A DNA stretch of 64,000 nt from Ignisphaera sp. GTDB taxonomy: Archaea > Thermoproteota > Thermoprotei_A > Sulfolobales > Ignisphaeraceae. Each line of letters starts with the position of its first letter. Position 1 is the stretch's first letter. The stretch covers positions 151,667 through 215,666 of the forward strand of contig JAWAHS010000001.1 in NCBI GenBank assembly GCA_038889075.1, in the 5' to 3' direction. The notes below the pieces were generated by a model. It did not search any database. It was not told where the DNA came from and saw only the letters and a program-made list of their open reading frames with translations. The position numbers and the translations under genes were made by a program. Below, one piece after another: positions 39,216-56,573 of the stretch.

Positions 39216-40274
39216 GTGATGATAGTGGATGACGTCATTAGATTACTACACGGTTCTGGAGGTATTGAGATGAGAGAAATTTTGGAAAGAGTTATATTCT
39301 CAAGGGTTGATCCGTCGCTGAAGAGAATTGGCGGAGGTATAGGAATTGATTGGCCAGACGATGGTGCTCTAATACCTCTACCAGATGGAAAGTACCTTGT
39401 TGTTACAATGGATAGCTACACCGTTAATCCACTATTCTTCCCTGGGGGCAATATAGGTTCACTAGCCGCCTCAGGTACTATAAATGATGTTGTTATGATG
39501 GGTGGCAAACCCATTGCACTGCTCGATTCAATAGTTGTTGAAGAGGGTTTTCCTATTAAGGATCTTCAAATAATAGTGGACTCTTTCATAGATGTTATTA
39601 GAAATGAGGGAGTGGCATTGATAGGAGGAGACTTTAAAGTTATGCCGAGAGGCCAGGTGGATAAGATTGTAATAACTACTGTGGGTATAGGTATAGCAGG
39701 CAGACCTATAGTGGATAGACCTAGGGCAGGGGATAAGATCATAGTTAGTGATTATGTTGGCGATCATGGAGCGGTGATCATGATGCTTCAATTAGGTCTC
39801 GAAAAGCGCATTGATGAATTAGCTGAGGGTATTTTAAAAAGCGATGTGAAACCGTTAACAAAGCTTATGATCCCAGTAATTGAAAGATACGGCGACTACA
39901 TCCATGCTGCAAGAGACCCTACACGTGGGGGTCTTTCTGGGGTCTTAAATGAATGGGCATCCTCCTTAGATATTGTGATAGTTGTTGACGAAGGGAATAT
40001 ACCTATTAGAGAACCAGTAGCTAGATACTGTGAAATGTTAGGCATAGACCCCCTCTATCTAGCAAGTGAAGGTATAGCAGTTCTCTCCGTTGATCCACTA
40101 ATGGCCGAAGACATAGTCAACTACATGAAGAGTCTTGGGTATACAAATGCCAGAATTATAGGCGAAGTTAAAGCCAGTGAAAAGTACAAAAACTATGTAA
40201 TTTTGAAGACTGCCGTAGGAGGTTTTAGAATTCTTGAACCACCACATGGCGAGCTCGTACCTAGAATATGCTAG
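39216..40274 (+). CDS. hypE: Hydrogenase maturation protein
   Basis: HGSGG, DSYTVNPLFFPGGNIG, GGDFKV, RDPTRGG, C-terminal PRIC. Confidence 0.96.
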   Translation: MMIVDDVIRLLHGSGGIEMREILERVIFSRVDPSLKRIGGGIGIDWPDDGALIPLPDGKYLVVTMDSYTVNPLFFPGGNIGSLAASGTINDVVMMGGKPIALLDSIVVEEGFPIKDLQIIVDSFIDVIRNEGVALIGGDFKVMPRGQVDKIVITTVGIGIAGRPIVDRPRAGDKIIVSDYVGDHGAVIMMLQLGLEKRIDELAEGILKSDVKPLTKLMIPVIERYGDYIHAARDPTRGGLSGVLNEWASSLDIVIVVDEGNIPIREPVARYCEMLGIDPLYLASEGIAVLSVDPLMAEDIVNYMKSLGYTNARIIGEVKASEKYKNYVILKTAVGGFRILEPPHGELVPRIC

Positions 40275-40596: not shown

Positions 40597-41475
40597 TTAA
40601 ATCTCTATCAACAGATCCTTCTTTCTACCTAGGTATCTATATGATGTATAGACTGTATAGGTGGCTGGGAAGATCTCTACAGCACTTTCTATAGGACCGT
40701 ATAACAGGAAGTCGGCTCCTAACGCTATTGTGGTTAGATTGCTTGCCAATTCACAAGCCTTTGTACCATCGATACCAAATCTTTCCTTAAAGGATTTTCT
40801 CTGTGATGAGATAGCATTGTGAGCCCCAGCACCGCATGGTAAGCCATATTTTGATTTGATTTCAATTAGTGTTCTTATGGCTGCTGAAAGGCTTGGGACA
40901 TCTATAACGAAGGTGTCTATGAGTACCTTTTCTATGCCGTAGTTTTTGGCTTTATCAAGGAGGAGTTCAAGGTTCTTTAGCCTGACGTCGATATCCACTA
41001 CTCGTTCTGTATAGAGCAGTAGTACAGATGATTTTATATTGAATTCTTGGAGAAGTGAAAATTCTTCATCTTTCGATTTAGCATTTAGAGAATTGAAGAT
41101 GACTCTATCATTGAGTCCTACATCTTTCACAAACTGAAATGCTGCCCTCATTGTCTCAATCGATAGTGCGTCGAGCATTATGGGCATTTTGGTTATGCTT
41201 GAAACGAAGTCTATGTATTTAACTATTGCATTAGGGGAGCTACTAACAACATCTAACATAGCAGGTATTCTTGTTTTATTGGAGAGTTCTTCAACTGTTT
41301 TAATAAGCTCTTCGGCAGCGGTCTTATCGAATTCACCATTCTTCTCATCTTTAACTACCTTATGTCTATGATAAAATATAGAGCCTACTAAAACAGGTGG
41401 GTTTTCCCAAGGAGCTCCTCCGATCCTAACTCCGCCTATCTCGTACACTTTTTGTATGCTTTTAAATCTAAACAC
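40597..41475 (-). CDS. mtrH: Stand-alone MtrH-like methyl-H4MPT:corrinoid methyltransferase
   Basis: MFRF...IGG.PWENPPVLVGSIFYHRH, FNSL, GLPCGAGAHN, GADFLLYGPIE. Confidence 0.85.
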   Translation of the reverse strand: MFRFKSIQKVYEIGGVRIGGAPWENPPVLVGSIFYHRHKVVKDEKNGEFDKTAAEELIKTVEELSNKTRIPAMLDVVSSSPNAIVKYIDFVSSITKMPIMLDALSIETMRAAFQFVKDVGLNDRVIFNSLNAKSKDEEFSLLQEFNIKSSVLLLYTERVVDIDVRLKNLELLLDKAKNYGIEKVLIDTFVIDVPSLSAAIRTLIEIKSKYGLPCGAGAHNAISSQRKSFKERFGIDGTKACELASNLTTIALGADFLLYGPIESAVEIFPATYTVYTSYRYLGRKKDLLIEI

Positions 41476-41502
41476 TGTGTTTCACCATGGTTGCAGGGTA
41501 TT

Positions 41503-41550
41503 CTGAGTTAGGGTAGTTATAAAAGTTTTATCCAGTAGTAAAGTTTTTAA
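41503..41550. promoter_or_regulatory. Back-to-back BRE/TATA promoters for mtrH (-) and the mer-Mrp-hydrogenase operon (+)
   Basis: Minus strand AAAACTTTTATAACTACCCTAAC; plus strand AAAGTTTTTAA about 30 nt before mer. Confidence 0.5.
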
Positions 41551-41579
41551 CCTCAGCCTCTTACACCATTTATGGTGTC

Positions 41580-42575
41580 ATGGTAGTGGAACTTAGATTT
41601 GGAATTGAGTTAGTCCCTTCATCACCTATTTCAGAGCTCGTTAACCTCTCTATACATGCTGAAAATCTCGGATTCAATTATGTCTGGATAACAGATCACT
41701 TTAACAATAGAAATGTCTATGTAACATTGACATCGATTGCATTGAATAGTAAGAAGATTATGCTCGGACCTGGTGTAACAAATCCCTATGTAATTAGCCC
41801 CGTCTGGACAGCATCGGCTGTGGCCTCACTAGATGAGGTATCCAATGGTAGAGCTGTCCTTGGTATCGGAGCTGGTGATAGGGCAACGCTTGAAAAGATA
41901 TCTATTGAATGGAAAAAACCTCTTGCAACAATTAGGGAAAGTGTTGAGATTATAAGGAAGCTGCTTAGGGGTGAGGTAGTTACATATAGTGGTGAAATCT
42001 TTAAAGTTTTTGGCGCGGCTCTGAACTATAAACCTGTACATGAGATACCTATATATATAGGTGCTCAGGCACCTAAAATGCTACAGCTAGCTGCATTACT
42101 GGGTGACGGTATACTGATAAATGCCTCTAACCCTAAAGACTATGAGTATGCGATGAATATTATTAGGGAAGGGGCTAAAGAAAGAATTGGGAAACTAGAT
42201 ATTGTTGCCTATACAAGCTTCTCGATAGACAGAGATAGATCTGTAGCTAGGAAAACTGTGAGACCGATAGTTGCATTTATTGTTGCTGGAGCACCAGAGG
42301 AGGTTCTCAGGAGACATGGAATAGATGTAGAGAAGGCTAAAGAGATAGGAGAAAATATATCGAAAGGAAGATTCAAGGACGCATTTTCACTTGTTACAGA
42401 TGAGATGATAGATGCATTCTCAATTTCAGGAACACCAACAGAGTGTATAGAAGTGTTAAATAGACTAGTAAAGCTTGGGGTTACCCAGATAGTATTTGGA
42501 TCACCTATAGGTAAGGATAAGAAGAGTGCATTAGAGCTAATAGCATCAGATGTAGTAGCACACTTTAAAGCATAG
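41580..42575 (+). CDS. mer: F420-dependent methylene-H4MPT reductase
   Basis: FGIELVP, WITDHFNNRNVY, GPGVTNPY, GIGAGD, GAQAPKML, LINAS, GSPIG. Confidence 0.93.
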   Translation: MVVELRFGIELVPSSPISELVNLSIHAENLGFNYVWITDHFNNRNVYVTLTSIALNSKKIMLGPGVTNPYVISPVWTASAVASLDEVSNGRAVLGIGAGDRATLEKISIEWKKPLATIRESVEIIRKLLRGEVVTYSGEIFKVFGAALNYKPVHEIPIYIGAQAPKMLQLAALLGDGILINASNPKDYEYAMNIIREGAKERIGKLDIVAYTSFSIDRDRSVARKTVRPIVAFIVAGAPEEVLRRHGIDVEKAKEIGENISKGRFKDAFSLVTDEMIDAFSISGTPTECIEVLNRLVKLGVTQIVFGSPIGKDKKSALELIASDVVAHFKA

Positions 42576-42602
42576 AATAATAGAAATAGGAAAGAGAGTG
42601 GG

Positions 42603-42899
42603 ATGAAGACCTTGAATTTTTTAGAGTCATGGGTAACAAATTTTTTAACCATTGCAATGTTTTTCTACTTAGCTTCCTTTCTTCTATACCTTGTGAGACT
42701 ATTTAAAGGTCCTACCATTCCGGATATGGTCTTAGTTATAGATGCCTTAGGCTATGATTTAGCAGCATTTCTAATTATTCTCAGCATCCTTCTTAGAAGT
42801 CCAATACTAATTCCATGTGCAATTGTTTTAACGCTATGGATCTACGCACTAGATATATATGTGGCTAAGTATCTAGAAGCAAAGGAAATGGGTGAATAG
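42603..42899 (+). CDS. Mrp Na+/H+ antiporter subunit F (MbhB-like)
   Basis: RLFKGPTIPD...D, AKYLE. Confidence 0.88.
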   Translation: MKTLNFLESWVTNFLTIAMFFYLASFLLYLVRLFKGPTIPDMVLVIDALGYDLAAFLIILSILLRSPILIPCAIVLTLWIYALDIYVAKYLEAKEMGE

Positions 42900-43287
42900 T
42901 ATGGATGTAGAGTTGATTAACTGGATTCTTGTTGTAATTGGTCAGATACTTGTTGCTATAGGAGTCCTTTGCGATCTCATTGCGGCAATACTGATGATAA
43001 GATTTCCCAACTTCTATATAAGACTTCATGCACTAACTATTGGTAGTATCGGTGGTGCTATTATTCCAGCAATAGGTGCAGCGCTGATTGCATTTGGATC
43101 GCCATTTCTTGGTATGTTTAGATGGTTTGTAGCTGGTGGAGCTCTCGTTACAGCTCTATTTATATTTATACTTGGAGGTGCAGGAGCCCATGCAATAGCT
43201 AGAGCAGCCTATAAATCTAAAGTAGTCGCATATCAACCCTGTTATGTGAATCAGTTAGCAGAGGATAGAGGTGGGGATAAGTGTTAG
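42892..43287 (+). CDS. Mrp antiporter subunit G (MbhC-like)
   Basis: RFPNFYIRLHA, AHAIARAAY. Confidence 0.9.
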   Translation: MNSMDVELINWILVVIGQILVAIGVLCDLIAAILMIRFPNFYIRLHALTIGSIGGAIIPAIGAALIAFGSPFLGMFRWFVAGGALVTALFIFILGGAGAHAIARAAYKSKVVAYQPCYVNQLAEDRGGDKC

Positions 43288-43544
43288 AACTTGCTGACCT
43301 AGTATTTGTAATGCTCGGTATTTCAGCTCTATTAAGCATCCCAGCAACTATATTAGCAATAATATCTAGAGATCTCCTAAGAGCAGTCATATTTTCAGCA
43401 TTGCAAAGTACTATGTATACGCTAATGTTCTTTCTACTTATGGCCCCTGATATAGTTCTCGTTTATGTAGCAGTTTCAATTGGGTTTATGTCATTATTGA
43501 TAATACTATTGATAAAAAAGGTGGGGAGGTATGAAAGGTACTAG
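43281..43544 (+). CDS. MbhD/DUF4040-like membrane subunit
   Basis: RDLLRAV, LMAPDIVL. Confidence 0.85.
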   Translation: MLELADLVFVMLGISALLSIPATILAIISRDLLRAVIFSALQSTMYTLMFFLLMAPDIVLVYVAVSIGFMSLLIILLIKKVGRYERY

Positions 43545-44355
43545 GATTAGAGACGCAATATTTATTGCATCGATAGTATTCGCTGTAACTATTCTTGCTG
43601 TACCCACCCTCTTAGGTGCCCTAGGTCATATGCCACCGGTAGATGTAAGAACTATCGCTATCAAATATCTCAATAATACATACAATCCATTTAATCAGAG
43701 CATATGGACATCGTCACCTGAAGCAGTAACGGCGATTGTTTGGGACTATAGAGGGCTTGATACACTGTTTGAAACCGCAGTATTTTATAGTGCTATAATA
43801 GCAGCTTTAGCACTATATAGAGAGATTTTAGGAAAGAAGGATACGTTAGAGGGTAGAGGTCTATCGATAATAGTTCAGAGATCGACAGCGATATCAATGG
43901 TTGGAATTCTAGTAGTAGGTTTTGCAACTATTCTACATGGACAGTTAACTCCTGGTGGAGGTTTCCAAGGGGGAGCCATTGCTGCTGTTACATCAGTAGT
44001 TGCTATAGTTGTTTTCTCTAGACTCTTTATAGACAGATCTAGGCTATCATATAAACACCTTCTAGTAATTAGAAATACAGCATTAGTTGGTATAGCACTA
44101 ACTGCTATAATACCTCTAATCTTCCAGCTCTTCAGCAATCAAACGACCTTTATCTTTCAGAACCAGGGTAAAGCTATGAGCGGCTTTAGCTACCCTCATA
44201 CAATTGCTGATGCCCCTATGGGTGGCAGCATATGGTTCTATAACCTATTTGAGGGATTGGCTGTGGTTTCGGCATTCAGCTTAGCTATGATTATTGTCTT
44301 CTATAGTGAAGAGCTTTCAAGAAAGACTATAGAGGGTGAGGAGAGTGGGTTCTGA
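43531..44355 (+). CDS. Mrp antiporter subunit B (MbhE+F-like)
   Basis: VTAIVWDYRGLDTLFE, HGQLTPGGGFQGG. Confidence 0.9.
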   Translation: MKGTRIRDAIFIASIVFAVTILAVPTLLGALGHMPPVDVRTIAIKYLNNTYNPFNQSIWTSSPEAVTAIVWDYRGLDTLFETAVFYSAIIAALALYREILGKKDTLEGRGLSIIVQRSTAISMVGILVVGFATILHGQLTPGGGFQGGAIAAVTSVVAIVVFSRLFIDRSRLSYKHLLVIRNTALVGIALTAIIPLIFQLFSNQTTFIFQNQGKAMSGFSYPHTIADAPMGGSIWFYNLFEGLAVVSAFSLAMIIVFYSEELSRKTIEGEESGF

Positions 44356-44776
44356 ACTGCAGATATCTATGTATGTAATCGTAATAGTTTCACTATATGT
44401 GAACATAGCTGTATGTATGTATGGTGTTATATCCAAGCCCAATTTGGTAAAGAAATTAATATCTTTTACAATACTTCAAGATTCTATCAATGCATTCCTA
44501 ATACTTATAGGATATAGATTGTGGAAGCCTGGCATACTTCTACAACCACCTGTTCTCTTAGACTGGAATCCTACATCAGAAGTCTTAAAACAATTCTTAG
44601 AAAGAGCCGTAGATCCATTACCACAGGCACTAGTTCTAACAGCTATAGTGATAGGGTTAGCTGTAAACATATTTTTAGTTACAGCCATATTACACTTGTA
44701 TAGACATTTTAATACAGTTGATATGGATGAAATAGGGAAGCTGAAGAGGGTGGTAGTTGTTGAGGAGACTACTTAG
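44336..44776 (+). CDS. Mrp antiporter subunit C (MbhG-like)
   Basis: NLVKKLI, DPLPQALVLTAIVIG. Confidence 0.92.
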   Translation: MRRVGSELQISMYVIVIVSLYVNIAVCMYGVISKPNLVKKLISFTILQDSINAFLILIGYRLWKPGILLQPPVLLDWNPTSEVLKQFLERAVDPLPQALVLTAIVIGLAVNIFLVTAILHLYRHFNTVDMDEIGKLKRVVVVEETT

Positions 44777-45266
44777 AGCACTTCCGATATTTCTATTCTC
44801 CTTTTTGCTGTACCTAGTGTACTCTGGTTCACTAAAACTCTATGATATAGCTACAGGAATCGTCGTATCCATAGCTATAGGAATTATAATAGCACCTATA
44901 GTTGTTGAAAATTGGAGAAAGGCTCTGGATATCTCTAGGTTGTTCTATCTAATTAAGTACATTATAATCTACTTCCTAATATATGAAGTCAAGGCACATC
45001 TAAACGTTATAAAAATAGGTTTGAGCCCGTCCATACAGATAAAGCCTGGTATTGTTAGAGTACCTATACACTCTAAAAGTGGCTATGCCTTAACACTTGT
45101 ATCGCTATCTATAACAAATACCCCTGGTACAGTTGTTATTGATGTTGATGAAGAGAAAAACATTCTATATGTTAATTGGATCTATGTAACAACTACAAAA
45201 ACTGAGGATATGTATAGAGAAATCGCGGAGGAGTTTGATATATATGCAAAAAAGATTTTTGACTAG
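44757..45266 (+). CDS. Mrp antiporter subunit E (MbhA-like)
   Basis: IKPGIV, SITNTPGT, LYVNWI. Confidence 0.92.
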   Translation: MLRRLLRALPIFLFSFLLYLVYSGSLKLYDIATGIVVSIAIGIIIAPIVVENWRKALDISRLFYLIKYIIIYFLIYEVKAHLNVIKIGLSPSIQIKPGIVRVPIHSKSGYALTLVSLSITNTPGTVVIDVDEEKNILYVNWIYVTTTKTEDMYREIAEEFDIYAKKIFD

Positions 45267-46931
45267 GTGATCATTATGATGTTGCATGAAGTAGGTCTGA
45301 TTCCAATACTCTTAGTATTAGCTGCTTTTATCACACCGATCTTTTCGTTATTTACACGAAATAGATACTTCTATTCGACATACATGTTGATAGTGGCTAT
45401 CATAATCACACTTTTTTCTTATAAAACGATAGACGCTGTAATGAGAGGTCATATACTCGTCTATCCCTTTGGAGGATGGCCGCCACCTTTAGGTATAGTA
45501 TACACTGTGGACTTCATGAATGGTATCCTAGGTTTTCTAGCATCTATACTATTTCTAAAGATTTCCATCTATAGTTTTTGGTACTACGGAAAAGTTGCTG
45601 GATATGAGTGGCTTACAACCTTGATGTTGCTACTCATGGCCGGTGTTATGGGTTGCATATATACAGGTGATATATTCAACTTCTTTGTTATGCTTGAGGT
45701 ACTATGCATATCCTCATATGCTCTCGTATCATTCTTTAAGAGAAGGAGATGGGCTGTAGAGGCATCCATAAGCTATGCATTTATAGGAGCATTGGCAACA
45801 ACATTCTTCCTATTTGGGGTATCATTTATATATGCAGCTTATGGTACGCTGAATATAGCTGATATAGCTGCAAAGGCCCAAGGTATCGTGCCGGATACAA
45901 TTAGCTCATGGAGTGGGGTATGTGTTGGTGATGTGTGTTTTGGCAATATAGTGTTGGCGTCAGCTGTATCAATAGCTCTAACGCTATGGGCACTAACCTT
46001 TGAGGCAGGTCTCTTTCCAAATAACTACTGGCTTCCAAGCGCATATACTGAAGCACCGACACCTGCTTCCGCTCTATTTGCTGGAATAGTTGATAAGGTT
46101 GGTACATACGGTGTACTCAGGATAATGCTGACAATATTCTCTGGTGGCTCAATGCTGATGTTCAAAGTTTTTGAGATACCCTTTAGAGATCTTGTACTAA
46201 TGATTTTAAGTATGCTTGGTATAGTGTCAGGGTATCTGGGCTCACTCGTAATGGTTATACAAAGGGATGTGAAGAGATTCCTCTCTTACAGTACTATAAG
46301 CCACATAGGGCTACTCTTCATACCATTTATAGGTTTTACATCCAACCATCCTGAGGAGATCATGGCCAAGACACTTGCGGCGATACTATTCCATAGTATT
46401 GTACACGCCTTAAGCGAATCCATGCTATTTACAGGCTTTGGAACCTTGGCTACCATAGCAGGTAGTAGAAAAATAGATGATATGAGAGGTTATGGAAGGC
46501 GATATCCGGCCATAGCACTGGCTGTTACTATAGGGATGCTAAGTTTACTGGGTTTAGCGCCTCTTCCAGGCTTCTTTAGTAAATACATGATATTTCTACC
46601 AATGATAGAGGCATCTGCATACATACAAGCTCTATCAATCATAATCATCTCTGGGATCTCGGCTATAGGCTACTTTAGGGTAATCTATACACTATTTCTA
46701 CCTAAATTAGAGGATTCTAAGAAGAGTGAGTACGGGATTGTATTACCATCGATACTATGCATTAGTGTGGCATTAATTCTTTTAATACTTGGACTAACGT
46801 ATATAACGTATGATATTTACAGTATATTAGTGAGTGGTAGCAAAATGGTGGTATCTACTAATGGTATTAGGAAATACATAATGACTGTAGATTCGATCTA
46901 TCTGAAGCTATTTACCGCAGGTGGTGGATAG
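45267..46931 (+). CDS. Mrp antiporter subunit D (MbhH/NuoM-like)
   Basis: GGWPPPLGI, GDIFNFFVMLEV, WLPSAYTEAP, KRFLSYSTISH, PLPGFFSK. Confidence 0.92.
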   Translation: MIIMMLHEVGLIPILLVLAAFITPIFSLFTRNRYFYSTYMLIVAIIITLFSYKTIDAVMRGHILVYPFGGWPPPLGIVYTVDFMNGILGFLASILFLKISIYSFWYYGKVAGYEWLTTLMLLLMAGVMGCIYTGDIFNFFVMLEVLCISSYALVSFFKRRRWAVEASISYAFIGALATTFFLFGVSFIYAAYGTLNIADIAAKAQGIVPDTISSWSGVCVGDVCFGNIVLASAVSIALTLWALTFEAGLFPNNYWLPSAYTEAPTPASALFAGIVDKVGTYGVLRIMLTIFSGGSMLMFKVFEIPFRDLVLMILSMLGIVSGYLGSLVMVIQRDVKRFLSYSTISHIGLLFIPFIGFTSNHPEEIMAKTLAAILFHSIVHALSESMLFTGFGTLATIAGSRKIDDMRGYGRRYPAIALAVTIGMLSLLGLAPLPGFFSKYMIFLPMIEASAYIQALSIIIISGISAIGYFRVIYTLFLPKLEDSKKSEYGIVLPSILCISVALILLILGLTYITYDIYSILVSGSKMVVSTNGIRKYIMTVDSIYLKLFTAGGG

Positions 46932-48436
46932 TGGAGATACTTAAGTACATAGCTATAGTTGTAGCGCTACTTGTAATTGCAGCAAGCAGACTCAGAAGTA
47001 AAATTATGAAAAGTATCGGGTACTTAGTTCTTATTGCAATGCCGCTCTACTCAATTATTTCAGGAGGACCCTGGGACTTCACATCATCCATTATTGCAAC
47101 ACTAGCAGCTATAATAGGATTCGCATCATCAATGTATACAAATGGTTATCAGGAGCTTAAGTACGGCGGAGGTCATCTGCATATACTTATAGACGTATTC
47201 GCAGTAACGGTGTATACCACCTTTGTAGCAATGAATGTTATATCATTTATAGTGTGTTGGCTAATTGCAGAGATGGTTGGATTCTTTACCATAGTGTATG
47301 AGGTTGAGAGAAGGACGCTCGCAGCTGGACTAAGATATATAGCTGTATCCATGGTACCCTCAGATATGGCGTTAATGACTCTTTTAGCATCTCTATCTAT
47401 TAAAATGCCAATCACCGAAGCACTATTTACTCCAATTACTGAAGTAGCTCATCTGCTAAGCGGATTGCCCCCAGTACTATACATTATAATGGTACTAGGG
47501 TTCATAGCTAAGGCTGCTGTAATACCACTCCACTTTTGGCTTCCAGATGCACATTCACTTGCCCCAGCTCCAGCCTCGGCAATACTATCTGGTATTATGG
47601 TTAAAATGGGTGTATATGGTGTGCTCAGGGTGCTACCATCGATAGATACGGCCTATACGCCTACTATATTTCTATTCTTTGGCATTCTAACAAGTATCTA
47701 TGGAGGTCTTCTAGCGTTAGTACAAACAGATATTAAGAGAATCCTCGCATACAGTACAATTGAACATACGGGGCTCATAATATCCGTACTCATGCTGTAT
47801 AGGTTGTCCAACCTTTCAGTATTTTTAGAGGCTGCCTTAGCCATTATATGTTCGCATGCAATGTACAAAGCTGCACTATTCCTAAACTCAGGTTCCATTG
47901 AAGTCTACTCACATACAAGAGAGATATCCAAATTGGGTTATCTAGCAAGAGAAATACCTGCTGAGGCATTTTCAGCACTAATCTCTATTCTATCTTTAAT
48001 GGGAGTACCCCCAACAATAGGATTCATAGCAAAGCTGTACCTCCTCATCTCATTGCTGTCGTATTTAATTGTAAACCCAGTAGTAGGAACGGTAATTGTA
48101 GTCTCTACATCGGTCGCTATAGTACTGGCAGCAATATACAGCATTAGATATATTACCGTATATTGGGGTACATGGAGAGGTGGTACAGAGGCTAAGAAAA
48201 CGGGTATAGAGCTTTTAAGAAGATTGACTATATGGGAGTGCATACCTGCGTGGCTGGGTATTGTCGGTACACCTTTAGTCATAATTGCCATATGGGGAAT
48301 TGAGACAATGAAACCCGATATATTAGCACCACTACTTCTAGCTATCCTGCTATTTCTAGCACTTGTCTACTATATATACATGCGTCTAAGGACAGCATCA
48401 AGAGATATGCAGTGGCTTGGGGGTGCAGTACCGTGA
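46931..48436 (+). CDS. Antiporter-like hydrogenase membrane subunit (HyfB/HycC/NuoL-like)
   Basis: KAAVIPLHFWLPDAHSLAPAPASAILSGIMVKMG, KRILAYST, HAMYKAALF, PPTIGF. Confidence 0.9.
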   Translation: MEILKYIAIVVALLVIAASRLRSKIMKSIGYLVLIAMPLYSIISGGPWDFTSSIIATLAAIIGFASSMYTNGYQELKYGGGHLHILIDVFAVTVYTTFVAMNVISFIVCWLIAEMVGFFTIVYEVERRTLAAGLRYIAVSMVPSDMALMTLLASLSIKMPITEALFTPITEVAHLLSGLPPVLYIIMVLGFIAKAAVIPLHFWLPDAHSLAPAPASAILSGIMVKMGVYGVLRVLPSIDTAYTPTIFLFFGILTSIYGGLLALVQTDIKRILAYSTIEHTGLIISVLMLYRLSNLSVFLEAALAIICSHAMYKAALFLNSGSIEVYSHTREISKLGYLAREIPAEAFSALISILSLMGVPPTIGFIAKLYLLISLLSYLIVNPVVGTVIVVSTSVAIVLAAIYSIRYITVYWGTWRGGTEAKKTGIELLRRLTIWECIPAWLGIVGTPLVIIAIWGIETMKPDILAPLLLAILLFLALVYYIYMRLRTASRDMQWLGGAVP

Positions 48437-48729
48437 GCTATTCGATGGGATCTGTAATACAACGGTTAGTTGAACGTCTTCAGCGTCGAGTAGAGTATAC
48501 ACTTGTCCTCAGTAAAGGATTCTACAATATGATAGTGGGTAAAATAATTAAAGCACACAATTGTATTGCCAGAGAAGATGTTGCTATAAAAATACTAAAA
48601 TCTATCGCACTATTCATACTGAGGCTTCAGTGCAGCTTAGAGGATGCATTATCAGCTACATCAATTTTATTTGAACTCTTCACATCTATTTCAATAATAC
48701 TTGTGATGGTGCTGGTATGGCATTTGTAG
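48433..48729 (+). CDS. Small membrane-anchored protein of the hydrogenase operon
   Basis: GTG overlaps the upstream TGA (GTGA); amphipathic helix plus one C-terminal TM; ORF track 48412-48729. Confidence 0.6.
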   Translation: MSYSMGSVIQRLVERLQRRVEYTLVLSKGFYNMIVGKIIKAHNCIAREDVAIKILKSIALFILRLQCSLEDALSATSILFELFTSISIILVMVLVWHL

Positions 48730-49598
48730 AGACTGTGTTAGCCATAGTTACTTCAATGCTTCTATACATTTTTCTTCCACCTCTTCTTGACGGAATTGAG
48801 AGGAAAATTAGGGCAAAGATACAGACTCGCTATGGTCCTCCAACAATCCTGCAGACCTGGTATGACATAATAAAGCTTTCCTCTAAAGAACTTAGGATAC
48901 CTCCTACTCTACAATATAGCATATTTCTATTCATTCTCGCACTTTCACTTTCAATTACAACGCTGTATCTGCTATCCTATATTCTAATATCATTTGATAT
49001 ATACACACTGACGATAATTATTGTATTAATCATCTCTACACACAGCCTACTAATACTCGTAAGCACACTATCATCGAATCCATTCTCAATAATTGGTGTT
49101 TTTAGAGGCTTAACCATCGATATAGTGAATGAAATGGGATTCATAGCGTCCATACCCCTGTACTATTTATCTATAAAGACCTTTGATTCATCAGTAAAAT
49201 CTTTCATACTTCTACTATTCTCAATACTATTTATATTTATCGTATCCTATGTAGGTAGTAAGAGACTTCCATATGATTTGCACGAAGCTGAACCAGAATT
49301 AGCTTCAGGTTCAATAATCGAATTCTCAGGGCCGATGCTAGCACTCTATCTCTATCTACATCTCATTGATAGATATACCATAATTGCTCTACCCATAACG
49401 ATGGGGATAGGTATAGGATTAGCAGTAACACCATTTGTCTCACTGTTTTTCATTCATGTTATTGCTGCATTAGTATATATAATATTTGGTGCTGTTGCCG
49501 CACTTCTAGGACGGTCTAGAATTGATATAGCTGTCAAAACACTTATGCTTATATACTTATTAATCATTATAGCATGGATAGTGGTGAAGCTAATATGA
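48717..49598 (+). CDS. Hydrogenase membrane subunit HycD/NuoH-like
   Basis: GIERKIRAKIQTRYGPP, QTWYD..KL, RLPYDLHEAEPELASG. Confidence 0.92.
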   Translation: MAFVETVLAIVTSMLLYIFLPPLLDGIERKIRAKIQTRYGPPTILQTWYDIIKLSSKELRIPPTLQYSIFLFILALSLSITTLYLLSYILISFDIYTLTIIIVLIISTHSLLILVSTLSSNPFSIIGVFRGLTIDIVNEMGFIASIPLYYLSIKTFDSSVKSFILLLFSILFIFIVSYVGSKRLPYDLHEAEPELASGSIIEFSGPMLALYLYLHLIDRYTIIALPITMGIGIGLAVTPFVSLFFIHVIAALVYIIFGAVAALLGRSRIDIAVKTLMLIYLLIIIAWIVVKLI

Positions 49599-51292
49599 GT
49601 GGTGCCTCTATGGTCTCTGCGCACTCTACTAACATTGTTGGAGATGCTATCTCAAAGATTATGGAATTCAAAGATAAGGTATTCAGTATAGAGCAGAGAG
49701 GTGGTATTGTAAGGATTAAAATTCACAGGGATATACTTCCGCATATTGTACAGAGATTAGCTATCTTAAAGGGGATATATCTGAGAACGATGATGGCATC
49801 TGATGAAAGAGGTCTAGAGGGTGTATATAGGCTATACTACGTATTTGGTGTCGATAAGGAGCATACAAATCTTGTATTTGAGGTAGCGCTTCCTCAAGAG
49901 GATCCAAAGGTACCCACAGTTGTTGATATTAATAGGGCGAGTGATTGGTATGAGCTTGAAGCACATGATATGCTTGGCGTAGAGTTTTTGAATAGAAAGC
50001 TTTACAGACTTGTATTGCCCGAGGATTGGCCCGAGAAGGTGCACCCTCTTAAGAAAGAGTATAGTGTGTCTGAACTTCTAAAGCTTTATAGACCTAAGGC
50101 AGTAGAGTATGCAAAAGAAATAGGTGCAGAGAATATTGTAACGATACCAATTGGACCATATCATCCGGCTCTCCATGAACCGGAGTTCTTTGAGCTCTAT
50201 GTTAGAGGAGAAAAAGTTATAGATGCTAGGTATATGGGATTCATGGTTCATAGAGGTATTGAGAAACTTGGGGAAAATATGAAATACGACCAGGTTCCAT
50301 TTCTTGCCGAGAGAATTTGTGGAATATGTGGATTTGTGCATTCAACATCGTATTGCCAAGCAGTTGAAAATGCTTTAGATATAGATGTACCTGAAAGAGC
50401 GCTATTCATAAGATCCATAATACTAGAGATTGAGAGAATACATAGCCATCTACTATGGGTTGGAGTTGCACTCCATCTATTGGGATATGATACAGGCTTC
50501 ATGCATTCCTGGAGGATTAGAGAAAGGGTTATGATACTTGCGGAACTTCTAACAGGTAGTAGAAAGACCTATGGAATAAATGTTGTTGGAGGTGTTAGAA
50601 GGGATATAGATAATGATAAGATTAGGAAAGCTATCGATGTTCTAAATTATGTTAGAGAGGAGTTCAAGAAACTCGTAGAGATATCCATTAATGTACCACA
50701 AGTTACTGCAAGACTTAGAGGAACAGGTGTACTACCCCTTGGAGAGGCCATTGCACTCTCTCTTGTTGGCCCAACTGCTAGAGGATCAGGACTTGATAGA
50801 GATGTTAGAAGGGACTACCCATATGCAGCCTATAAATATGTAAGCTTTAGAGTTCCAACATATAGCGAAGGTGATAACCTAGCTAGAACGCTCGTTAGAG
50901 TCGATGAAACCTTTGAAAGCATTGACATGCTGTATCAGCTACTGGACAAACTTCCTTCAGGAAGTATAAGAAATGAATCATGGTCAGTGGAACCGTATAG
51001 ACTAGGTATAGGATCTGTTGAAGCTCCTAGAGGTGAGGTCATACACGTACTCTTAACAGGAGAATACTCCCCGTACAGATGGAGAGTCAGAGCACCAACA
51101 TATCAGAATTTACCTGCCATCCCAATAATGCTTAAAGGGATAGATTTAGCAGACGCACCTCTAACAATAGCAAGTATTGATCCATGTTTCTCCTGCACCG
51201 ATAGAGCTATTGTAGTAGATGTAGATAGAAATACCGTAAAATCTATTCCTATAGAAGCTCTTTCATTAAAGGGCACTAGAGCTATAAGGTGA
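49574..51292 (+). CDS. Group 4 [NiFe]-hydrogenase large subunit, HycE-type (NuoC+NuoD fused)
   Basis: WYELE..DMLG, GPYHP, HRGIEK, L1 RICGICGFVH, L2 DPCFSC followed by TDR and a C-terminal extension; start possibly 49595. Confidence 0.95.
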   Translation: MDSGEANMSGASMVSAHSTNIVGDAISKIMEFKDKVFSIEQRGGIVRIKIHRDILPHIVQRLAILKGIYLRTMMASDERGLEGVYRLYYVFGVDKEHTNLVFEVALPQEDPKVPTVVDINRASDWYELEAHDMLGVEFLNRKLYRLVLPEDWPEKVHPLKKEYSVSELLKLYRPKAVEYAKEIGAENIVTIPIGPYHPALHEPEFFELYVRGEKVIDARYMGFMVHRGIEKLGENMKYDQVPFLAERICGICGFVHSTSYCQAVENALDIDVPERALFIRSIILEIERIHSHLLWVGVALHLLGYDTGFMHSWRIRERVMILAELLTGSRKTYGINVVGGVRRDIDNDKIRKAIDVLNYVREEFKKLVEISINVPQVTARLRGTGVLPLGEAIALSLVGPTARGSGLDRDVRRDYPYAAYKYVSFRVPTYSEGDNLARTLVRVDETFESIDMLYQLLDKLPSGSIRNESWSVEPYRLGIGSVEAPRGEVIHVLLTGEYSPYRWRVRAPTYQNLPAIPIMLKGIDLADAPLTIASIDPCFSCTDRAIVVDVDRNTVKSIPIEALSLKGTRAIR

Positions 51293-51801
51293 TCTACATG
51301 GTTAAATTTCTGAAGATAATTCCAATAGCGGTAAAAACGGGTACTGTCACCATAAAATATCCATATCAAGAACCACTAGTTACGGACTCATTTCGAGGCG
51401 CTATAGAGATTGATCCAAATAAGTGTGTAGGATGTGGTGCATGCACGCGAATATGTCCCCCTAAAGCTCTTACGTTAACAACAGAGAGCAATACAATGAT
51501 CCTAAGATATTTTGTTGGAAGATGTATATTTTGTGGTATGTGTGCCGATACATGTCCGGAGAAAGCAATTAAAATAACAAAAGAATTTGAATTAGCTACA
51601 GGCAATATATACGATCTCTATTCGGATGTAGAGCACGAGGTTAAAACATGCTCTATATGTGGCAAAACCTTTACCTCTAAGAAGCTTAGCAATAAAATTG
51701 CATCAAAGGTTCCCGATATTCCAACGGAGACCATGGATCTATGTCCTGATTGTAGAAGAAAGGAAACATTAAAGAAATTCATAGGTGTTCCGGAACAATG
51801 A
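51289..51801 (+). CDS. HycF/NuoI-like 2x[4Fe-4S] subunit
   Basis: TIKYP, FRG, CVGCGACTRICP, CIFCGMCADTCP, extra CSIC...CPDC. Confidence 0.92.
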   Translation: MIYMVKFLKIIPIAVKTGTVTIKYPYQEPLVTDSFRGAIEIDPNKCVGCGACTRICPPKALTLTTESNTMILRYFVGRCIFCGMCADTCPEKAIKITKEFELATGNIYDLYSDVEHEVKTCSICGKTFTSKKLSNKIASKVPDIPTETMDLCPDCRRKETLKKFIGVPEQ

Positions 51802-52319
51802 GTCAGTCAACCATTAAGGAATCCAGCTCTAAAAGCATAGATTTGAAGAAGGCTCTATCTAGAATTAAGAGAAGTATATGGGTTTTTCATATAAATACGG
51901 GGAGCTGTAATGGTTGTGACATAGAAATTTTAGATGTTCTAACCCCCTACTTTGATGTTGAAAGATTTGGTATAAAACTTGTGGTAAGCCCTAGACATGC
52001 TGATCTAGCACTTCTCACAGGACCTGTAACAATAAAAACGTTTTCAAAGGTCTATAGAGCTCTTAGTGCAATGCCTAGACCGAGATTTGTGCTAGCTATA
52101 GGTTCGTGTGCCGTTGGCGGCAACATATGGTTCGAATCCTACTCAACTATGGGCGGATTTCCAAAGGTTCTTGAAATGTTTAGCGAAATGGGTTTAGAGA
52201 TAGACGGTGTTGTATACGTTCCTGGCTGTCCAGCAAGACCAGAAGCTATAATATATGGAGCAGCGACGCTACTTGGCCTACAGAAACCTAAAACAGTATA
52301 TCGGAGGTTTAAGGCATGA
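51798..52319 (+). CDS. Hydrogenase small subunit HycG/NuoB-like
   Basis: GSCNGCDIE, SPRHAD, IGSCA, VPGCPARP. Confidence 0.94.
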   Translation: MSQSTIKESSSKSIDLKKALSRIKRSIWVFHINTGSCNGCDIEILDVLTPYFDVERFGIKLVVSPRHADLALLTGPVTIKTFSKVYRALSAMPRPRFVLAIGSCAVGGNIWFESYSTMGGFPKVLEMFSEMGLEIDGVVYVPGCPARPEAIIYGAATLLGLQKPKTVYRRFKA

Positions 52320-52576
52320 GGATAAGGATATCTCTATGTAGCATGTATTCCTATAGAGACCCACCTATACCTAGATCAAGGCACATCACTCCTATGATAA
52401 GCTTGTGTCATGAAGTAAGTGAAAGAATTATTGATAAACATGCATTGCCTGAAGATATTTTGGATTCCATTAATAGAGTTGGCTATGCAGATATATTTAA
52501 TGTTGAGAAAGCCAAGGTTCTTTTTGGAATTGAGCTTTCAGAAAATCAATATGTAAAGATAGTTCTCATCGAATAG
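52316..52576 (+). CDS. Hypothetical protein in the hydrogenase operon
   Basis: ATGA overlap with the small-subunit gene and abuts the next gene; no motif recognised. Confidence 0.6.
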   Translation: MRIRISLCSMYSYRDPPIPRSRHITPMISLCHEVSERIIDKHALPEDILDSINRVGYADIFNVEKAKVLFGIELSENQYVKIVLIE

Positions 52577-53599
52577 GTGAATAAATTGAAGTTTGCCTTC
52601 ATGTGTCGTGAACCAAGTAATAGAAGGGGGAATATAGCTGTTATAGGAGCGGGTCCCGCGGGACTTGCTGCAACAGGATACCTTGCCTGCCAAGGATATG
52701 AGGTGGATGTCTATGAGAAACTACCCTATGCAGGTGGTACAATGATGTTTGCTATCCCTTCATATAAAATTTCTTCAGATAGTATTATAGAGGGTGTAGA
52801 AGATTTGAGGGATAGATTTTCCGTAAAATTTTTCTTCAGGACAAAGGTATTTAGATATGGACAGAGTAGAAATGATTTTGGTGATGAATTTGTTGAAAGA
52901 GTAGTACAATTGGAGAACATTGTAGAGAAGTACAGTGCTATTCTAATATCTACAGGTACTTGGCAGCCAATTAACATTGCTGAGAATGTTAAGAATGTCA
53001 TTACAGCATTTGGATATCTATACTCCTGGCGTCTACATGAAGAGGGATTTTCATCAAACCAGATAGGTAGGGGTAGGAGGGCAGCAGTCATAGGCACGGA
53101 TATTCCAGCTGTTGAAGTGGTTAGAAAGATGATCGAACAGGGTTTTGAGGAAATCTACGTTCTATATGGTGGTAGAGCTAGTGAAACTCATATGGGCTGG
53201 TATTGGATGACGAATCTATATAAAGAGAATGTAAAGCTTATGCGGTATATAGATATCAAGAGGGTTGTGGTAGAACACGATTTCGCTAAGGCTTTAGAGT
53301 ACACAGAGTTTGACTATAAGGCATCTCAACATACCACAAAGTTAATAGAGGTTGATCTAGTTGTAGTTTCATTAGGCTCTAAACCAACACCACCAGCACT
53401 ATACAACTCTAAAGATATAGGTCTTGATGATTCTGGTAGAATAGTCGTTGATGGACAGTTTCGTACTAAAATTGAAAAGGTCTACGCCTCTGGAAGTATT
53501 GTATACGGTTTGATATATAAGCTGGGAAGAGCATTCAGGGACGGATTAAATGCAGCTAAAAATATTGATCTATACCTCTATAGAAGGAGGTATGCATAG
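52577..53599 (+). CDS. GltD-like FAD-dependent oxidoreductase (short form)
   Basis: FAFMCRE, FAD motif IGAGPAGL, ISTGTW; second Rossmann motif degenerate (IGTDIPAVE). Confidence 0.85.
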   Translation: MNKLKFAFMCREPSNRRGNIAVIGAGPAGLAATGYLACQGYEVDVYEKLPYAGGTMMFAIPSYKISSDSIIEGVEDLRDRFSVKFFFRTKVFRYGQSRNDFGDEFVERVVQLENIVEKYSAILISTGTWQPINIAENVKNVITAFGYLYSWRLHEEGFSSNQIGRGRRAAVIGTDIPAVEVVRKMIEQGFEEIYVLYGGRASETHMGWYWMTNLYKENVKLMRYIDIKRVVVEHDFAKALEYTEFDYKASQHTTKLIEVDLVVVSLGSKPTPPALYNSKDIGLDDSGRIVVDGQFRTKIEKVYASGSIVYGLIYKLGRAFRDGLNAAKNIDLYLYRRRYA

Positions 53600-54116
53600 G
53601 GTGAGTATAATGAGTGGCATAGAATCGTCAACACCGGCTACGATGAGTTTTAGAAGACTTATAGACTATGATAAATGTATAGGCTGTGGAGTTTGTGAGG
53701 AAGTATGCAGATTTCTTCACGAGAATCGACCCCTTATTCTACTCTATAGAGTTGCTGAGGACGTCGATAGGCCGATATCATGCTTCCACTGTGCTAGAGC
53801 ACCATGTATAGCGGTATGTCCAACAAATGCTTTAAGCTATGATAGCCAGGGAGCAGTCACAGTATCCATTGCTAAATGTATTGGCTGTACATCCTGTATA
53901 GCAGCATGTCCGTTTGGAATACCTGAGCTACTGCCAATAGGACACATTACTAAATGTGATCTCTGTAAAAAACTTAGGGCAGAGAATTTAGAACCTGGAT
54001 GTATAGCTACATGTCCATCAGATGCAATTCTATGGGGATCCTCCGAATCAATAACAAAGATGATGCGTAAAAAACATCTCAAGAGAATTGTGAAGGCATA
54101 TAGTCTCTACATATAA
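53550..54116 (+). CDS. Four-cluster [4Fe-4S] protein (HycB/HydN-like), paralogue of 20016-20492
   Basis: CIGCGVCEEVC, CFHCARAPCIAVCP, CIGCTSCIAACPFG, KCDLC...PGCIATCP; true start probably near 53592-53610. Confidence 0.9.
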   Translation: MQLKILIYTSIEGGMHRVSIMSGIESSTPATMSFRRLIDYDKCIGCGVCEEVCRFLHENRPLILLYRVAEDVDRPISCFHCARAPCIAVCPTNALSYDSQGAVTVSIAKCIGCTSCIAACPFGIPELLPIGHITKCDLCKKLRAENLEPGCIATCPSDAILWGSSESITKMMRKKHLKRIVKAYSLYI

Positions 54117-54190
54117 CGGGAGATCGTAATAGATATTGTTAAGTTGGCTAGTAACCCAAAATTCGATTTCAATGTATGTAATCCAGATTT

Positions 54191-54805
54191 TCAAATCCGA
54201 TTTGTATTAGGTTCAGACTCTTCCGTTTCTTCAATGCCTGTTTTGGATATTTCAAATAGTATCTTTTCATAGCCACCTGTCCTCCTACCCTTGTATCCAT
54301 ATATGGCTAAGATATTCCCCTTTACTACATCCCACTCCTCACCGCCAGAACCCATATTAACCTCTAGTATTTTTGAACCTGGAGGAAATACCCAATATAC
54401 CACATAGTTGTATTCAGGTACTTCAGACTCATAGAAATTCTCATACATATTTCTTCCCATCCTTATTGGGGCTCTAAACCTTACTGTGAAGACTATATAT
54501 GGTCTCTTCCTAGATTCTGCAAAACCTAGGTCTATCATGACCACACGTGGATATACCCTAACACCATTAACCATAACCCTTTCCTGATCTAGAAATCCTT
54601 GCATATTTGTCCAGAGTCTTGCTATCTCATCATTAAAAAGTTTTTCATCTTTCACAACAATGCTATAATACTCTAACGGATCATGGTAGTGGAATACTAA
54701 ATAGTACGCTATATAATCTATACTAACAAAGAATAGACCATGTGCATAGATCGGCCTTACCTGCTTACTCGCCTCCTCTAAAAATTTTGGGCTTACCATA
54801 ATCAA
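54191..54805 (-). CDS. Hypothetical protein (archaeal, function unknown)
   Basis: 204-aa ORF with normal codon usage, GGTG ribosome-binding site and TATA upstream. Confidence 0.75.
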   Translation of the reverse strand: MIMVSPKFLEEASKQVRPIYAHGLFFVSIDYIAYYLVFHYHDPLEYYSIVVKDEKLFNDEIARLWTNMQGFLDQERVMVNGVRVYPRVVMIDLGFAESRKRPYIVFTVRFRAPIRMGRNMYENFYESEVPEYNYVVYWVFPPGSKILEVNMGSGGEEWDVVKGNILAIYGYKGRRTGGYEKILFEISKTGIEETEESEPNTNRI

Positions 54806-55442
54806 TACACCACTGTTACTAATGGTATATAGTTCTGACCATCTTTAACCTTTTTCAACACGGTATTCATGTATAGTCTTCTAAATATATAGAGACAGAT
54901 AGCTAGTTGACATAAATAAGGTCGGTATTTTAAATAAATCTCGAAGGTCTTTAGAGGCGATTTTAGCAATCAATTCCTCACGTAAAAGTAGTGTATGATG
55001 AAGGACGCGGTGTTGCTACCAAGGTTATTGAAAATACATGCTTTAGACAAAGGGTATTACTGATATTTTAATTTTCGGTGGTCATGGCATTATAGTCTAA
55101 TCTGATTGGAGCAGATATAGCGATCTTCTCTGGATGTTTTCACTACTGTTTTACGGTTTTAGGTGTAGAGTAGAGCTATGTAACTATCTCTATAACAGTA
55201 GTATAATTAGAAAATGAATGAATGGTTAACCGATATACTTGAAGAATTAAAGTTGGCTAGAGGGGTTGGCTTATATATCATAAAATCGAAGATTAGTAAC
55301 GCTGAGGAGGAACCATCAATACTAGAGCTATCTGCACAGGTAATACCATATCCTCAAAGAATACTTGAACAATGGAGTGAGTATGCTATCAAAGAATAGC
55401 AAAAAGGTTTAGGTGTTGGGATTTAGTGCTATAATTGCCTTA

Positions 55443-55630
55443 CTCTGGGGTTCAGCTCTTGTATAGGTTTATATTGGTTGGTTTTATTGCCTCATACTTT
55501 TCCTCTGCATTCTGCTCGGGTTTTCATTGGGCTTGGGGGTATTCAGGAGCACCCCTAGACATCCACATCTTGGGTATCTCGGGGAGAGCCGCTATCTATA
55601 GCATCTCAGCGGCTCCCGAACCCCTCATCC
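55443..55630 (-). mobile_element. Probable non-autonomous IS200/IS605 (TnpB)-derived remnant
   Basis: GC-rich patch; hairpin GAGCCGCT-N14-AGCGGCTC (55586-55615); broken minus-strand reading MW...LNTPKPNENPSRMQ/EAIKPTNINLYKS* recalls TnpB C-terminal tails of thermophilic archaea (pattern recognition only). Confidence 0.45.
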
Positions 55631-55730
55631 AGCTACCTCCACACATATCGCTATATAATAGTATACCTATAGATGTTACAACCAATACCAACCAATACAA
55701 ACAGATATGAAAACCAAAACAGTTGCACAA

Positions 55731-56420: not shown

Positions 56421-56573
56421 ATCCAACCACTTATTTTAACAAATTGAATGCACCTTCTTTGGCCGCGTTACTATCGCTGTTCAGAACGAGGATTAACCGC
56501 TATAGAAACCGAGCTGTGCAGTATTATTTTAATTATTTTAGAAGATATTAATGGGAAAGTTAAGCCAGATGAA

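Follow-up and report, generated by a model that had tools for sequence, protein, structure and literature searches.

Is a reductase of the tetrahydromethanopterin (H4MPT) one-carbon (C1) pathway transcribed together with an ion-pumping hydrogenase, and is that hydrogenase the site at which the pathway conserves energy? The question is raised by a locus in a 64,000-nucleotide (nt) stretch of the genome of Ignisphaera sp., an archaeon from hot springs (contig JAWAHS010000001.1 of GCA_038889075.1, positions 151,667 to 215,666; hereafter the window, whose numbering is used throughout), in which mer lies directly upstream of Mrp-antiporter and group 4 [NiFe]-hydrogenase genes, at 41580-54116. A previous annotation of this DNA (the original prediction) had answered yes on both counts. 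On balance we favor a modified answer, in which mer heads an older Mrp-hydrogenase operon, the whole is read as one unit, a GltD-like/HydN-like pair serves as its electron input, and its expression is coordinated with C1 metabolism.

The features at the 5′ end of the unit are as follows (BRE, transcription factor B recognition element; SD, Shine-Dalgarno).

40597-41475, minus strand: mtrH-family methyl-H4MPT:corrinoid methyltransferase (NF002142, 352.9 bits, above cut-off)
41540-41552, plus strand: putative BRE/TATA box AAAGTTTTTAACC of the mer-led unit, conserved in the four mer-bearing species
41580-42575, plus strand: mer, F420-dependent 5,10-methylene-H4MPT reductase (TIGR03555 and NF002619 above cut-off; Pfam Bac_luciferase)
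42576-42611, plus strand: mer-mrpF spacer, 27 nt to ATG 42603 and 36 nt to TTG 42612, purine-rich, with an SD-like GTGGG
42603-42899, plus strand: mrpF-like subunit (PF04066), with T6, T6 and T5 runs at 42617, 42641 and 42660

By its profile matches the open reading frame (ORF) at 41580-42575 is a genuine mer whose enzyme activity is predicted: it scores 443.8 bits on TIGR03555 (cut-off 348.7) and 450.7 bits on NF002619 (cut-off 276), over residues 6-329. The context for its substrate is present in the same window, as H4MPT C1 enzymes and genes of F420 biosynthesis (cofC, cofD, cofE). In an alignment of the four species that carry mer, a GTG or ATG at 41586 is conserved and ATG 41580 is not, and the conserved start of mer is probably GTG 41586. 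For mrpF, TTG 42612 is conserved and is probably the start, ATG 42603 being out of frame in two of the four (G009 and G012); the mer-mrpF spacer would therefore measure 36 nt. Both conserved starts are preceded by SD-like motifs, GGTG for mer (about 41571-41576) and GTGGG for mrpF. Measured only as far as ATG 42603, the spacer (42576-42602) reads AATAATAGAAATAGGAAAGAGAGTGGG; 23 of its 27 nt are purines, and it holds neither a T run nor a lineage-type BRE/TATA box, just as had been described.

This arrangement recurs. All four mer-bearing species, which belong to one genus (G000, the window's own genome, with G009, G012 and G014), have mer followed by mrpF at a distance of 19-36 nt with an SD-like motif between them; the G009 contig stops within mnhB, and a separate contig carries the genes that follow. 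A 3-kb stretch around the junction is present in runs from 10 studies, and in DNA run X6 a contig spanning 42132-46049 (record 12) bridges it. Recurrence in four species, this independent DNA contig and a metatranscriptome contig described below establish that the junction is not an assembly artefact, and the adjacency is not peculiar to one assembly. Outside Ignisphaera, none of 20 Mer loci, picked by two peptide patterns in a sample without methanogens, had mrp or hydrogenase genes within about 6 kb.

Is the junction crossed by one transcript? Within the 104 nt that separate the divergent mtrH and mer, two boxes are conserved. One of them, AAAGTTTTTAAC at 41540, resembles the AAA-N-TTTATA-type boxes found 5′ of mrpF in congeners that lack mer, and it would act as the promoter of the mer-led unit. 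Scanning with the box-type pattern gave no lineage-type BRE/TATA match within 150 nt upstream of mrpF; plus-strand matches between 40 and 55 kb fall at 41522/41540, 41996, 50081 and 53338. A search for sigma-70 promoters and hairpin terminators returned 54 sites against 54.2 expected and was disregarded, being inapplicable to archaea. Scans of the window for Rfam families and tRNAs gave no matches.

Further evidence comes from X16, a metatranscriptome from a different study than the window's likely source. Its record 4 is a 1221-nt contig corresponding to 41582-42802, with 10 differences from the window, that starts a few bases 5′ of the conserved mer start and ends 200 nt inside mrpF; record 8 begins in the large-subunit gene and ends in hydN (50242-53929). 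None of the X16 contigs listed lies over the divergent promoter gap (41444-41581), and mean word depth in X16 is 0 in the bin beyond the operon (54659-55275). Both regions are covered in DNA run X6, which argues against DNA carry-over in X16. Coverage is lacking in X16 at 44787-45403 and in runs X23 and X24 across the operon, and these gaps are uninformative on transcription there.

Some points weigh against a single transcript. Word depth in X16 is 26-41 over the distal genes and 14 over mer, although expression is not validly gauged by contig depth. A bridging contig need not come from a single RNA molecule, since mer transcripts that stop at 42617-42664 would overlap, and co-assemble with, mrpF transcripts that begin at about 42590. 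A TTTAAA that is present in three of the four species lies at 42564, 35 nt before ATG 42603 and about 44 nt before TTG 42612, and T6, T6 and T5 runs fall at 42617, 42641 and 42660, within the first 60 nt of mrpF.

Taken together, these could describe two transcription units, with a monocistronic mer ending at an oligo-T tract inside mrpF, the operon keeping a weak promoter whose TATA box is the TTTAAA at 42564, and the adjacency arising as a by-product of the assembly of a C1 island. The position of that hexamer 35 nt before ATG 42603 and its conservation in G000, G012 and G014 fit such a promoter; yet it overlaps the last codons of Mer, where it encodes His-Phe-Lys, reads TCTCAAAG in G009, lacks an A-rich BRE and is commonplace, at 0.73 per kb of the window. 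Oligo-T tracts serve as termination signals in archaea, and two of only three T6 runs in 41580-54200 lie here, but these runs encode conserved Phe and Leu residues of the first MrpF helix, and the RNA-library contig passes all three of them, to 42802. That the operon is able to run from a promoter of its own in the mer-less congeners, and that the X16 depth of mer differs from that of the distal genes, are consistent with two units, whereas a 19-36 nt spacer with an SD-like motif in four species is what would be expected of an internal cistron. We regard the two-unit alternative as unlikely.

Co-transcription of mer with the Mrp and hydrogenase genes, on the other hand, appears probable, and a single transcript may run from mer to hydN. 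The proposal that transcription ties mer to the hydrogenase is thus likely on the strength of the short spacer, the SD-like GTGGG, the lack of a lineage-type box before mrpF, conservation in four of four species and the bridging X16 contig.

Downstream of mrpF, the unit continues on the plus strand with the following genes.

42892-43287, plus strand: mrpG (Pfam/NCBIfam)
43281-43544, plus strand: MbhD-like subunit (Pfam/NCBIfam)
43531-44355, plus strand: MnhB-like subunit (Pfam/NCBIfam)
44336-44776, plus strand: mrpC/NuoK-like subunit (Pfam/NCBIfam)
44757-45266, plus strand: mrpE (Pfam/NCBIfam)
45267-46931, plus strand: MrpD/NuoN-like antiporter-like subunit (PF00361)
46931-48436, plus strand: HyfB/HycC-like antiporter-like subunit (PF00361)
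48412-48729, plus strand: small conserved ORF of 105 amino acids (aa), with a C-terminal hydrophobic segment by hydropathy and 29-76% identity in congeners (tblastn)
48717-49598, plus strand: NuoH/HycD-like membrane subunit (PF00146)
49574-51292, plus strand: [NiFe] large subunit of HycE type, NuoC domain fused to NuoD (PF00329, PF00346, PF00374)
51289-51801, plus strand: HycF/NuoI-like 2x[4Fe-4S] subunit (family matches, Cys pattern)
51798-52319, plus strand: HycG/NuoB-like small subunit (family matches, Cys pattern)
52316-52576, plus strand: small conserved soluble ORF of 86 aa, conserved in congeners, with no family match
52577-53599, plus strand: GltD/NfnL-like FAD/NAD(P)H flavoprotein of 340 aa (PF07992; PRK12770 below cut-off)
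53550-54116, plus strand: HycB/HydN-like polyferredoxin (HydN, HybA and AegA N-terminal families)

The 41580-54116 interval thus holds 17 codirectional ORFs, including the two small conserved ones (48412-48729 and 52316-52576). The original prediction had counted a 16-gene operon with mer first; mer is indeed first, and the count with mer included is 17. Every junction after mrpF lies between −50 and 0 nt, so the later genes do overlap or abut. The two antiporter-like subunits (45267-48436) have PRK08376 and hydrogenase 4 subunit B as their best named matches, and the 105-aa ORF has no match to Pfam or any other family.

What kind of hydrogenase is this? The 572-aa large subunit, a fused NuoC-NuoD, keeps all four Ni-ligating Cys that had been reported, in the two CxxC motifs RICGICGFVH and DPCFSCTDR, and carries a 32-aa C-terminal extension after the second. 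The NuoB-like small subunit retains four Cys (37, 40, 104 and 144), the NuoI-like subunit has two full CxxCxxCxxxC cluster motifs, and the group 4 membrane-bound set is complete for NuoB-, NuoI-, NuoH- and NuoL/M/N-like subunits. Compared with structures in the PDB, the large subunit has E. coli HycE (7Z0S) as its best solved relative, at 427 bits over residues 49-563, and scores 277 bits against P. furiosus MbhL. With HycE above MbhL and NuoC and NuoD fused rather than separate, the large subunit does not fit group 4d Mbh, the ferredoxin-coupled, Mrp-linked type. Of the traits that define group 4b, the Mrp module and the HycE-type hydrogenase are here; formate dehydrogenase (Fdh) and CooS/CooF genes are absent from 41580-54116 among the Pfam and NCBIfam profile matches, and CdhA starts 5.1 kb downstream of this interval, past a convergent gene. 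The predicted product is a formate hydrogenlyase (FHL)-like, Mrp-linked group 4 [NiFe]-hydrogenase.

The lack of an Fdh or CooS gene agrees with the original prediction, but its description of an operon with no head is misleading, since gltD and hydN form a likely input module that is conserved across families. The HydN-like protein, whose start is probably M32 (53643) rather than 53550, has 16 invariant Cys in four cluster motifs, in the fashion of HycB. Its GltD-like partner aligns with residues 156-472 of the large subunit of P. furiosus NfnI, the FAD/NADPH part, lacks the N-terminal Fe-S domain of NfnL and GltD, and has a GxGxxG motif that does not vary among 13 orthologues. In the E. coli AegA/YgfT models, the N-terminal ferredoxin half is matched by HydN and the C-terminal flavoprotein half by GltD.

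Among 18 complexes examined, 12 have both genes within the cluster and 3 more have hydN alone (G012, G034 and G027); the G026 contig ends in gltD, and the complexes of G022 and G017 show neither. The pair sits at the 3′ end in G000-type gene orders, between mrpD and hyfB in G008, G013 and G005, and upstream of the hydrogenase genes in genomes of other families (G030, G033 and G026). By analogy with FHL, HydN would wire the flavoprotein to the HycF-like subunit, and the enzyme looks like an FHL with an NAD(P)H-dependent flavoprotein in the place of FdhH. The GltD-HydN contact itself is suggested by gene order and by analogy between families. The GltD-like protein reaches 279 bits on PRK12770, under the 343-bit cut-off, which weighs against this assignment.

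How old is the association with mer? Among 41 relatives, 29 encode an orthologue of the large subunit, with 45% identity or more along most of the protein, and Mer occurs in only 4 of the 41 genomes of the order (G000, G009, G012 and G014). The order from mrpF to hydN is found without mer in G006, G011, G004, G010 and G003, and from mrpG, where the contig begins, in G001. In these mer-less congeners the region upstream of mrpF is non-coding and carries its own AAA-N-TTTATA-type box. The gene upstream of it encodes an Nbp35/ApbC-like P-loop NTPase (PF10609) in four of the five with upstream sequence and a PspC-domain protein in G006, which ruled out a MetF-type replacement for Mer at this position. 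Two of them (G010 and G011) have mtrH some 7 kb 5′ of mrpF and on the other strand, with energy-coupling factor (ECF)-type ABC transporter and Nbp35-like genes between, in the place occupied by mer in the mer clade.

Because the mer-less congeners have the same operon with an upstream box of its own, one subclade has either gained mer at the 5′ end or kept it there. The restriction of Mer, F420-dependent Mtd, an FpoF/FrhB-like protein and CofD to 4 of 41 genomes argues for addition. On this comparative evidence the 16-gene Mrp/hydrogenase operon is ancestral and predates the attachment of mer, probably a lineage-specific 5′ addition. The idea of a dedicated C1-pathway module headed by mer is not sustained, given 29 genomes with the large subunit against 4 with Mer, and congeners whose operon starts at mrpF. 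Since the relatives are kin, counts of synteny and co-occurrence reflect few independent events, and this tempers the inference.

The operon nevertheless lies in the company of C1 genes. The window is an H4MPT Wood-Ljungdahl island, with mptN, mch, fwdCABD, mtd, ftr, cofE, cofD, cofC, mfnB, mfnE and mfnF, and it also holds an ADP-forming acetyl-CoA synthetase, mtrH, cdhABC and the hydrogenase maturation genes:

36226-40274, plus strand: hypF, hypC and hypE, 1.3-5.4 kb upstream of the mer-led unit

The divergent mtrH-mer pairing is conserved in the four mer-bearing species, and mtrH is found in 15 of the 16 other genomes of the genus. The G009 copy (L033 2803-3677) gives two overlapping alignment pieces, residues 1-252 and 247-292, which suggests a frameshift or an assembly error. 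Among the mer-less genomes, an mtdB-like gene (Pfam Mpt_N) and ftr follow hydN in the same direction at 2-162 nt in G011, G004, G010, G003 and G001, that is, in five of the nine examined mer-less operons of genomes with Ftr and CdhA, and mtrH lies downstream of the operon in G005. Ftr and CdhA occur together in 16 of the 41 relatives. Within the genus, the hydrogenase orthologue and the Ftr-CdhA pair are found together in 14 of the 17 genomes; the other three (G002, G007 and G015) lack both. Since the operon adjoins H4MPT genes across the genus (mtdB-like and ftr on its 3′ side in five genomes, mtrH in another, mer on its 5′ side), the C1 methyl branch and the hydrogenase would be expressed in a coordinated way.

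Against a tighter bond, 13 genomes outside the genus have the hydrogenase but neither Ftr nor CdhA; the enzyme therefore does not require the pathway. Synteny with and without the pathway speaks both ways: the mer junction in all four mer-bearing species and the C1 genes 3′ of mer-less operons are on one side, and the 13 pathway-less genomes that keep the hydrogenase on the other. The hydrogenase is tied to C1 metabolism across the genus and is not proven to be “the” coupling site. That it is the chemiosmotic site of the pathway, as had been claimed, is not established, since the same genome encodes a second Mrp-linked NuoBCDI/H (Mbx-like) complex on contig 2 (L053 9426-17627), an hdrC-hdrB-hdrA(MvhD-fused)-mvhG-mvhA cluster on contig 8 (L051 2970-8580) and a four-subunit, sulfhydrogenase-like group 3b enzyme on contig 5 (L052 2468-6379). 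A role as a coupling site, not an exclusive one, is plausible. The proposed electron flow from acetyl-CoA decarbonylase/synthase (ACDS), Fwd or F420 into the hydrogenase is conceivable.

Twelve relatives with Ftr and CdhA (G001, G003-G006, G008, G010, G011, G013, G016, G019 and G038) have no Mer homologue at E <= 1e-30 and no MetF. MetF was rejected as a substitute in the genus, PF02219 having no match in any of its 17 genomes, and the PF00296 luciferase family is absent from all five near-complete mer-less genomes (97-99% complete). By these homology searches the step from methylene- to methyl-H4MPT is unaccounted for in the twelve. McrA was not found in G000.

A second alternative accepts co-transcription and changes the electron donor, which would be F420H2 rather than NAD(P)H. 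Its candidate input module lies elsewhere in the window:

18862-20492, plus strand: FpoF/FrhB-like F420 oxidoreductase subunit with a second HydN-like protein (20016-20492)

Docked on the hydrogenase, this pair would form a membrane F420H2:H+ oxidoreductase that recycles the cofactor of Mer and Mtd. Four of the 41 genomes, the same ones in each case, are alone in having the FpoF/FrhB-like protein (E < 1e-190), F420-dependent Mtd, CofD (E < 1e-150) and Mer. The HydN-like partner of the FpoF/FrhB-like protein shares 43% identity with the HydN of the operon, but the pair stands on its own, 22 kb away, and its contact with the hydrogenase is hypothetical. Neither Fno nor an FrhA-type hydrogenase was found in G000; the FpoF-like protein is therefore the only recognizable F420 recycling enzyme there, although its partner could just as well be ferredoxin, the second Mrp/Mbx-like complex on contig 2 or Hdr-Mvh.

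The history of gltD bears on the same question and weighs against GltD-HydN as the working input in the mer clade. Identity of gltD is 57-63% in that clade where the large subunit has 81-85%, whereas pairs of mer-less species show similar values for gltD (70-80%) and the large subunit (72-85%). Faster evolution of gltD in the mer clade suggests that electrons may enter there by a route other than NAD(P)H. In G012 the operon copy has been lost, cleanly missing between the 86-aa ORF and hydN (L031 15388-16183), and a 50%-identical paralogue lies on another contig; gltD is nonetheless intact in three of the four mer-bearing species. We consider the F420H2 alternative improbable. Its evolutionary form, in which an ancestral NAD(P)H-linked, Mrp-coupled FHL-type hydrogenase was re-wired to F420 in the four-species subclade, the FpoF/FrhB-like protein and HydN paralogue replacing a decaying GltD module and mer moving to the head of the operon, seems to us just as improbable. 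If it were true, the Mer and Mtd steps of the H4MPT Wood-Ljungdahl pathway would directly serve a non-methanogenic crenarchaeote for energy conservation or for reverse electron flow; to our knowledge, no membrane-bound, ion-translocating F420H2:H+ oxidoreductase has been known so far.

We return to the favored reading, in which mer heads the older operon and GltD-HydN provides the input. Starting from the gene content, motifs, synteny, phyletic pattern and bridging RNA-library contig that we observed, the following mechanism can be proposed. In a four-species subclade, mer would have been placed directly 5′ of the older 16-gene operon, and the resulting unit of about 12.5 kb (41.58-54.12 kb) would be read from the BRE/TATA-like box about 30 nt upstream of mer, with mrpF translated as an internal cistron by means of the SD-like GTGGG. 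The membrane arm would consist of MrpEFGBCD-like, HyfB/HycC-like antiporter and HycD-like subunits and the catalytic core of HycE-, HycF- and HycG-like subunits, with the HycB-like polyferredoxin and GltD/NfnL-like flavoprotein standing in place of FdhH or CooS/CooF. Most likely the enzyme would work reversibly as a redox valve, translocating ions as electrons pass between H2 and a soluble carrier, either NAD(P)H by way of GltD-HydN or possibly ferredoxin. From this composition we infer what donates the electrons, which way they flow and which ion is pumped.

The window has further features. FwdD and FwdB are fused in one 580-aa ORF (14322-16064, minus strand), with FwdD-like residues 8-126 and FwdB residues 152-573. 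At 24618-26992 and 32349-33902, both on the minus strand, four ORFs of 200-517 aa have no NCBIfam match (E <= 1e-10) and lie amid genes for F420, methanofuran and H4MPT cofactors. A peroxiredoxin ORF at 56043-56426 has 127 aa, compared with profiles of about 200-220 aa, and word depth in X6 reaches about 318x in the nearby bin 55276-55892, where loose ends are numerous; in the region 55276-56426, a gene cut short next to a repeat could explain this, as could a sequence common to many members of the community.

The locus bears on how energy is conserved, and how F420, NAD(P)H, ferredoxin and H2 are balanced, in non-methanogenic archaea with the H4MPT Wood-Ljungdahl pathway, which is unsettled. 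It offers a concrete candidate for purification, an FHL-like, Mrp-linked hydrogenase with formate dehydrogenase replaced by GltD/HydN, whose cluster adjoins H4MPT genes in three distinct arrangements within a single genus. The F420-dependent C1 enzymes, Mer included, are confined to one subclade, with 12 other Ftr- and CdhA-bearing genomes having neither Mer nor MetF. No paper was found on a mer-mrp/hydrogenase operon or on the restricted F420 module. Some Ignisphaera metagenome-assembled genomes with the Wood-Ljungdahl pathway have already been published, and an extract of that report claims “all” of its genes (PMC6421429). The present distribution refines this claim, as worded in that extract, and provides a natural comparison for the cost and yield of the methylene-to-methyl step.

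Among known systems, E. coli formate hydrogenlyase (Hyc, 7Z0S; group 4a/4b, HycE type) is alike in its fused NuoC-NuoD, its HycF, HycG and HycD, its HycC/HyfB-like subunit and its HycB-like four-cluster ferredoxin. The Ignisphaera unit differs in having a GltD/NfnL-like flavoprotein in the place of FdhH, a full Mrp module (E, F, G, B, C and D) and mer at its 5′ end. Thermococcus onnurineus has clusters named Fdh-Mfh-Mnh and Codh-Mch-Mnh. Those clusters (HydDB group 4b) share an Mrp module contiguous with a HycE-type hydrogenase, and ion translocation is presumed, whereas the unit described here has no formate dehydrogenase or CooS/CooF and carries GltD-like and HydN-like proteins as its donor module. 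As given in an extract of the HydDB paper, group 4b comprises formate- or CO-respiring, Mrp-linked enzymes (PMC5037454).

Another is the “Smar3” mbh/mbx-related cluster of Staphylothermus marinus (Smar_1057-1071), a Desulfurococcales-type crenarchaeote cluster without formate dehydrogenase, which is similar as described. Beside it, two locus tags away, lies Smar_1055, a short SudA/GltD-like protein about 120 aa shorter than P. furiosus SudA (extract of PMC2678158). In contrast to our locus, the SudA-like gene is not linked to the complex in the extracted text of PMC2678158, and S. marinus has no H4MPT genes beside the cluster. GltD-like subunits have also been noted in mbx-like operons of Thermotoga, as stated in an extract of PMC4758237. 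E. coli AegA/YgfT (PRK12769/PRK12809) has ferredoxin and flavoprotein parts that are matched by HydN and GltD, and GltD aligns to residues 156-472 of the Nfn large subunit (5JCA_L); unlike in those proteins, the parts here are two genes inside a membrane hydrogenase operon, and the Fe-S N-domain of NfnL/GltD is missing.

Finally, the Fpo/Fqo F420H2 dehydrogenases of Methanosarcina and Archaeoglobus are complex-I-like membrane modules in organisms that use Mer and Mtd. The resemblance lies in the complex-I-like membrane module, in Mer and Mtd, and in an FpoF-like subunit encoded in the genome. Here, however, the FpoF-like gene stands outside the operon and the Ni ligands are kept, so that the module should reduce protons, not quinone or phenazine.

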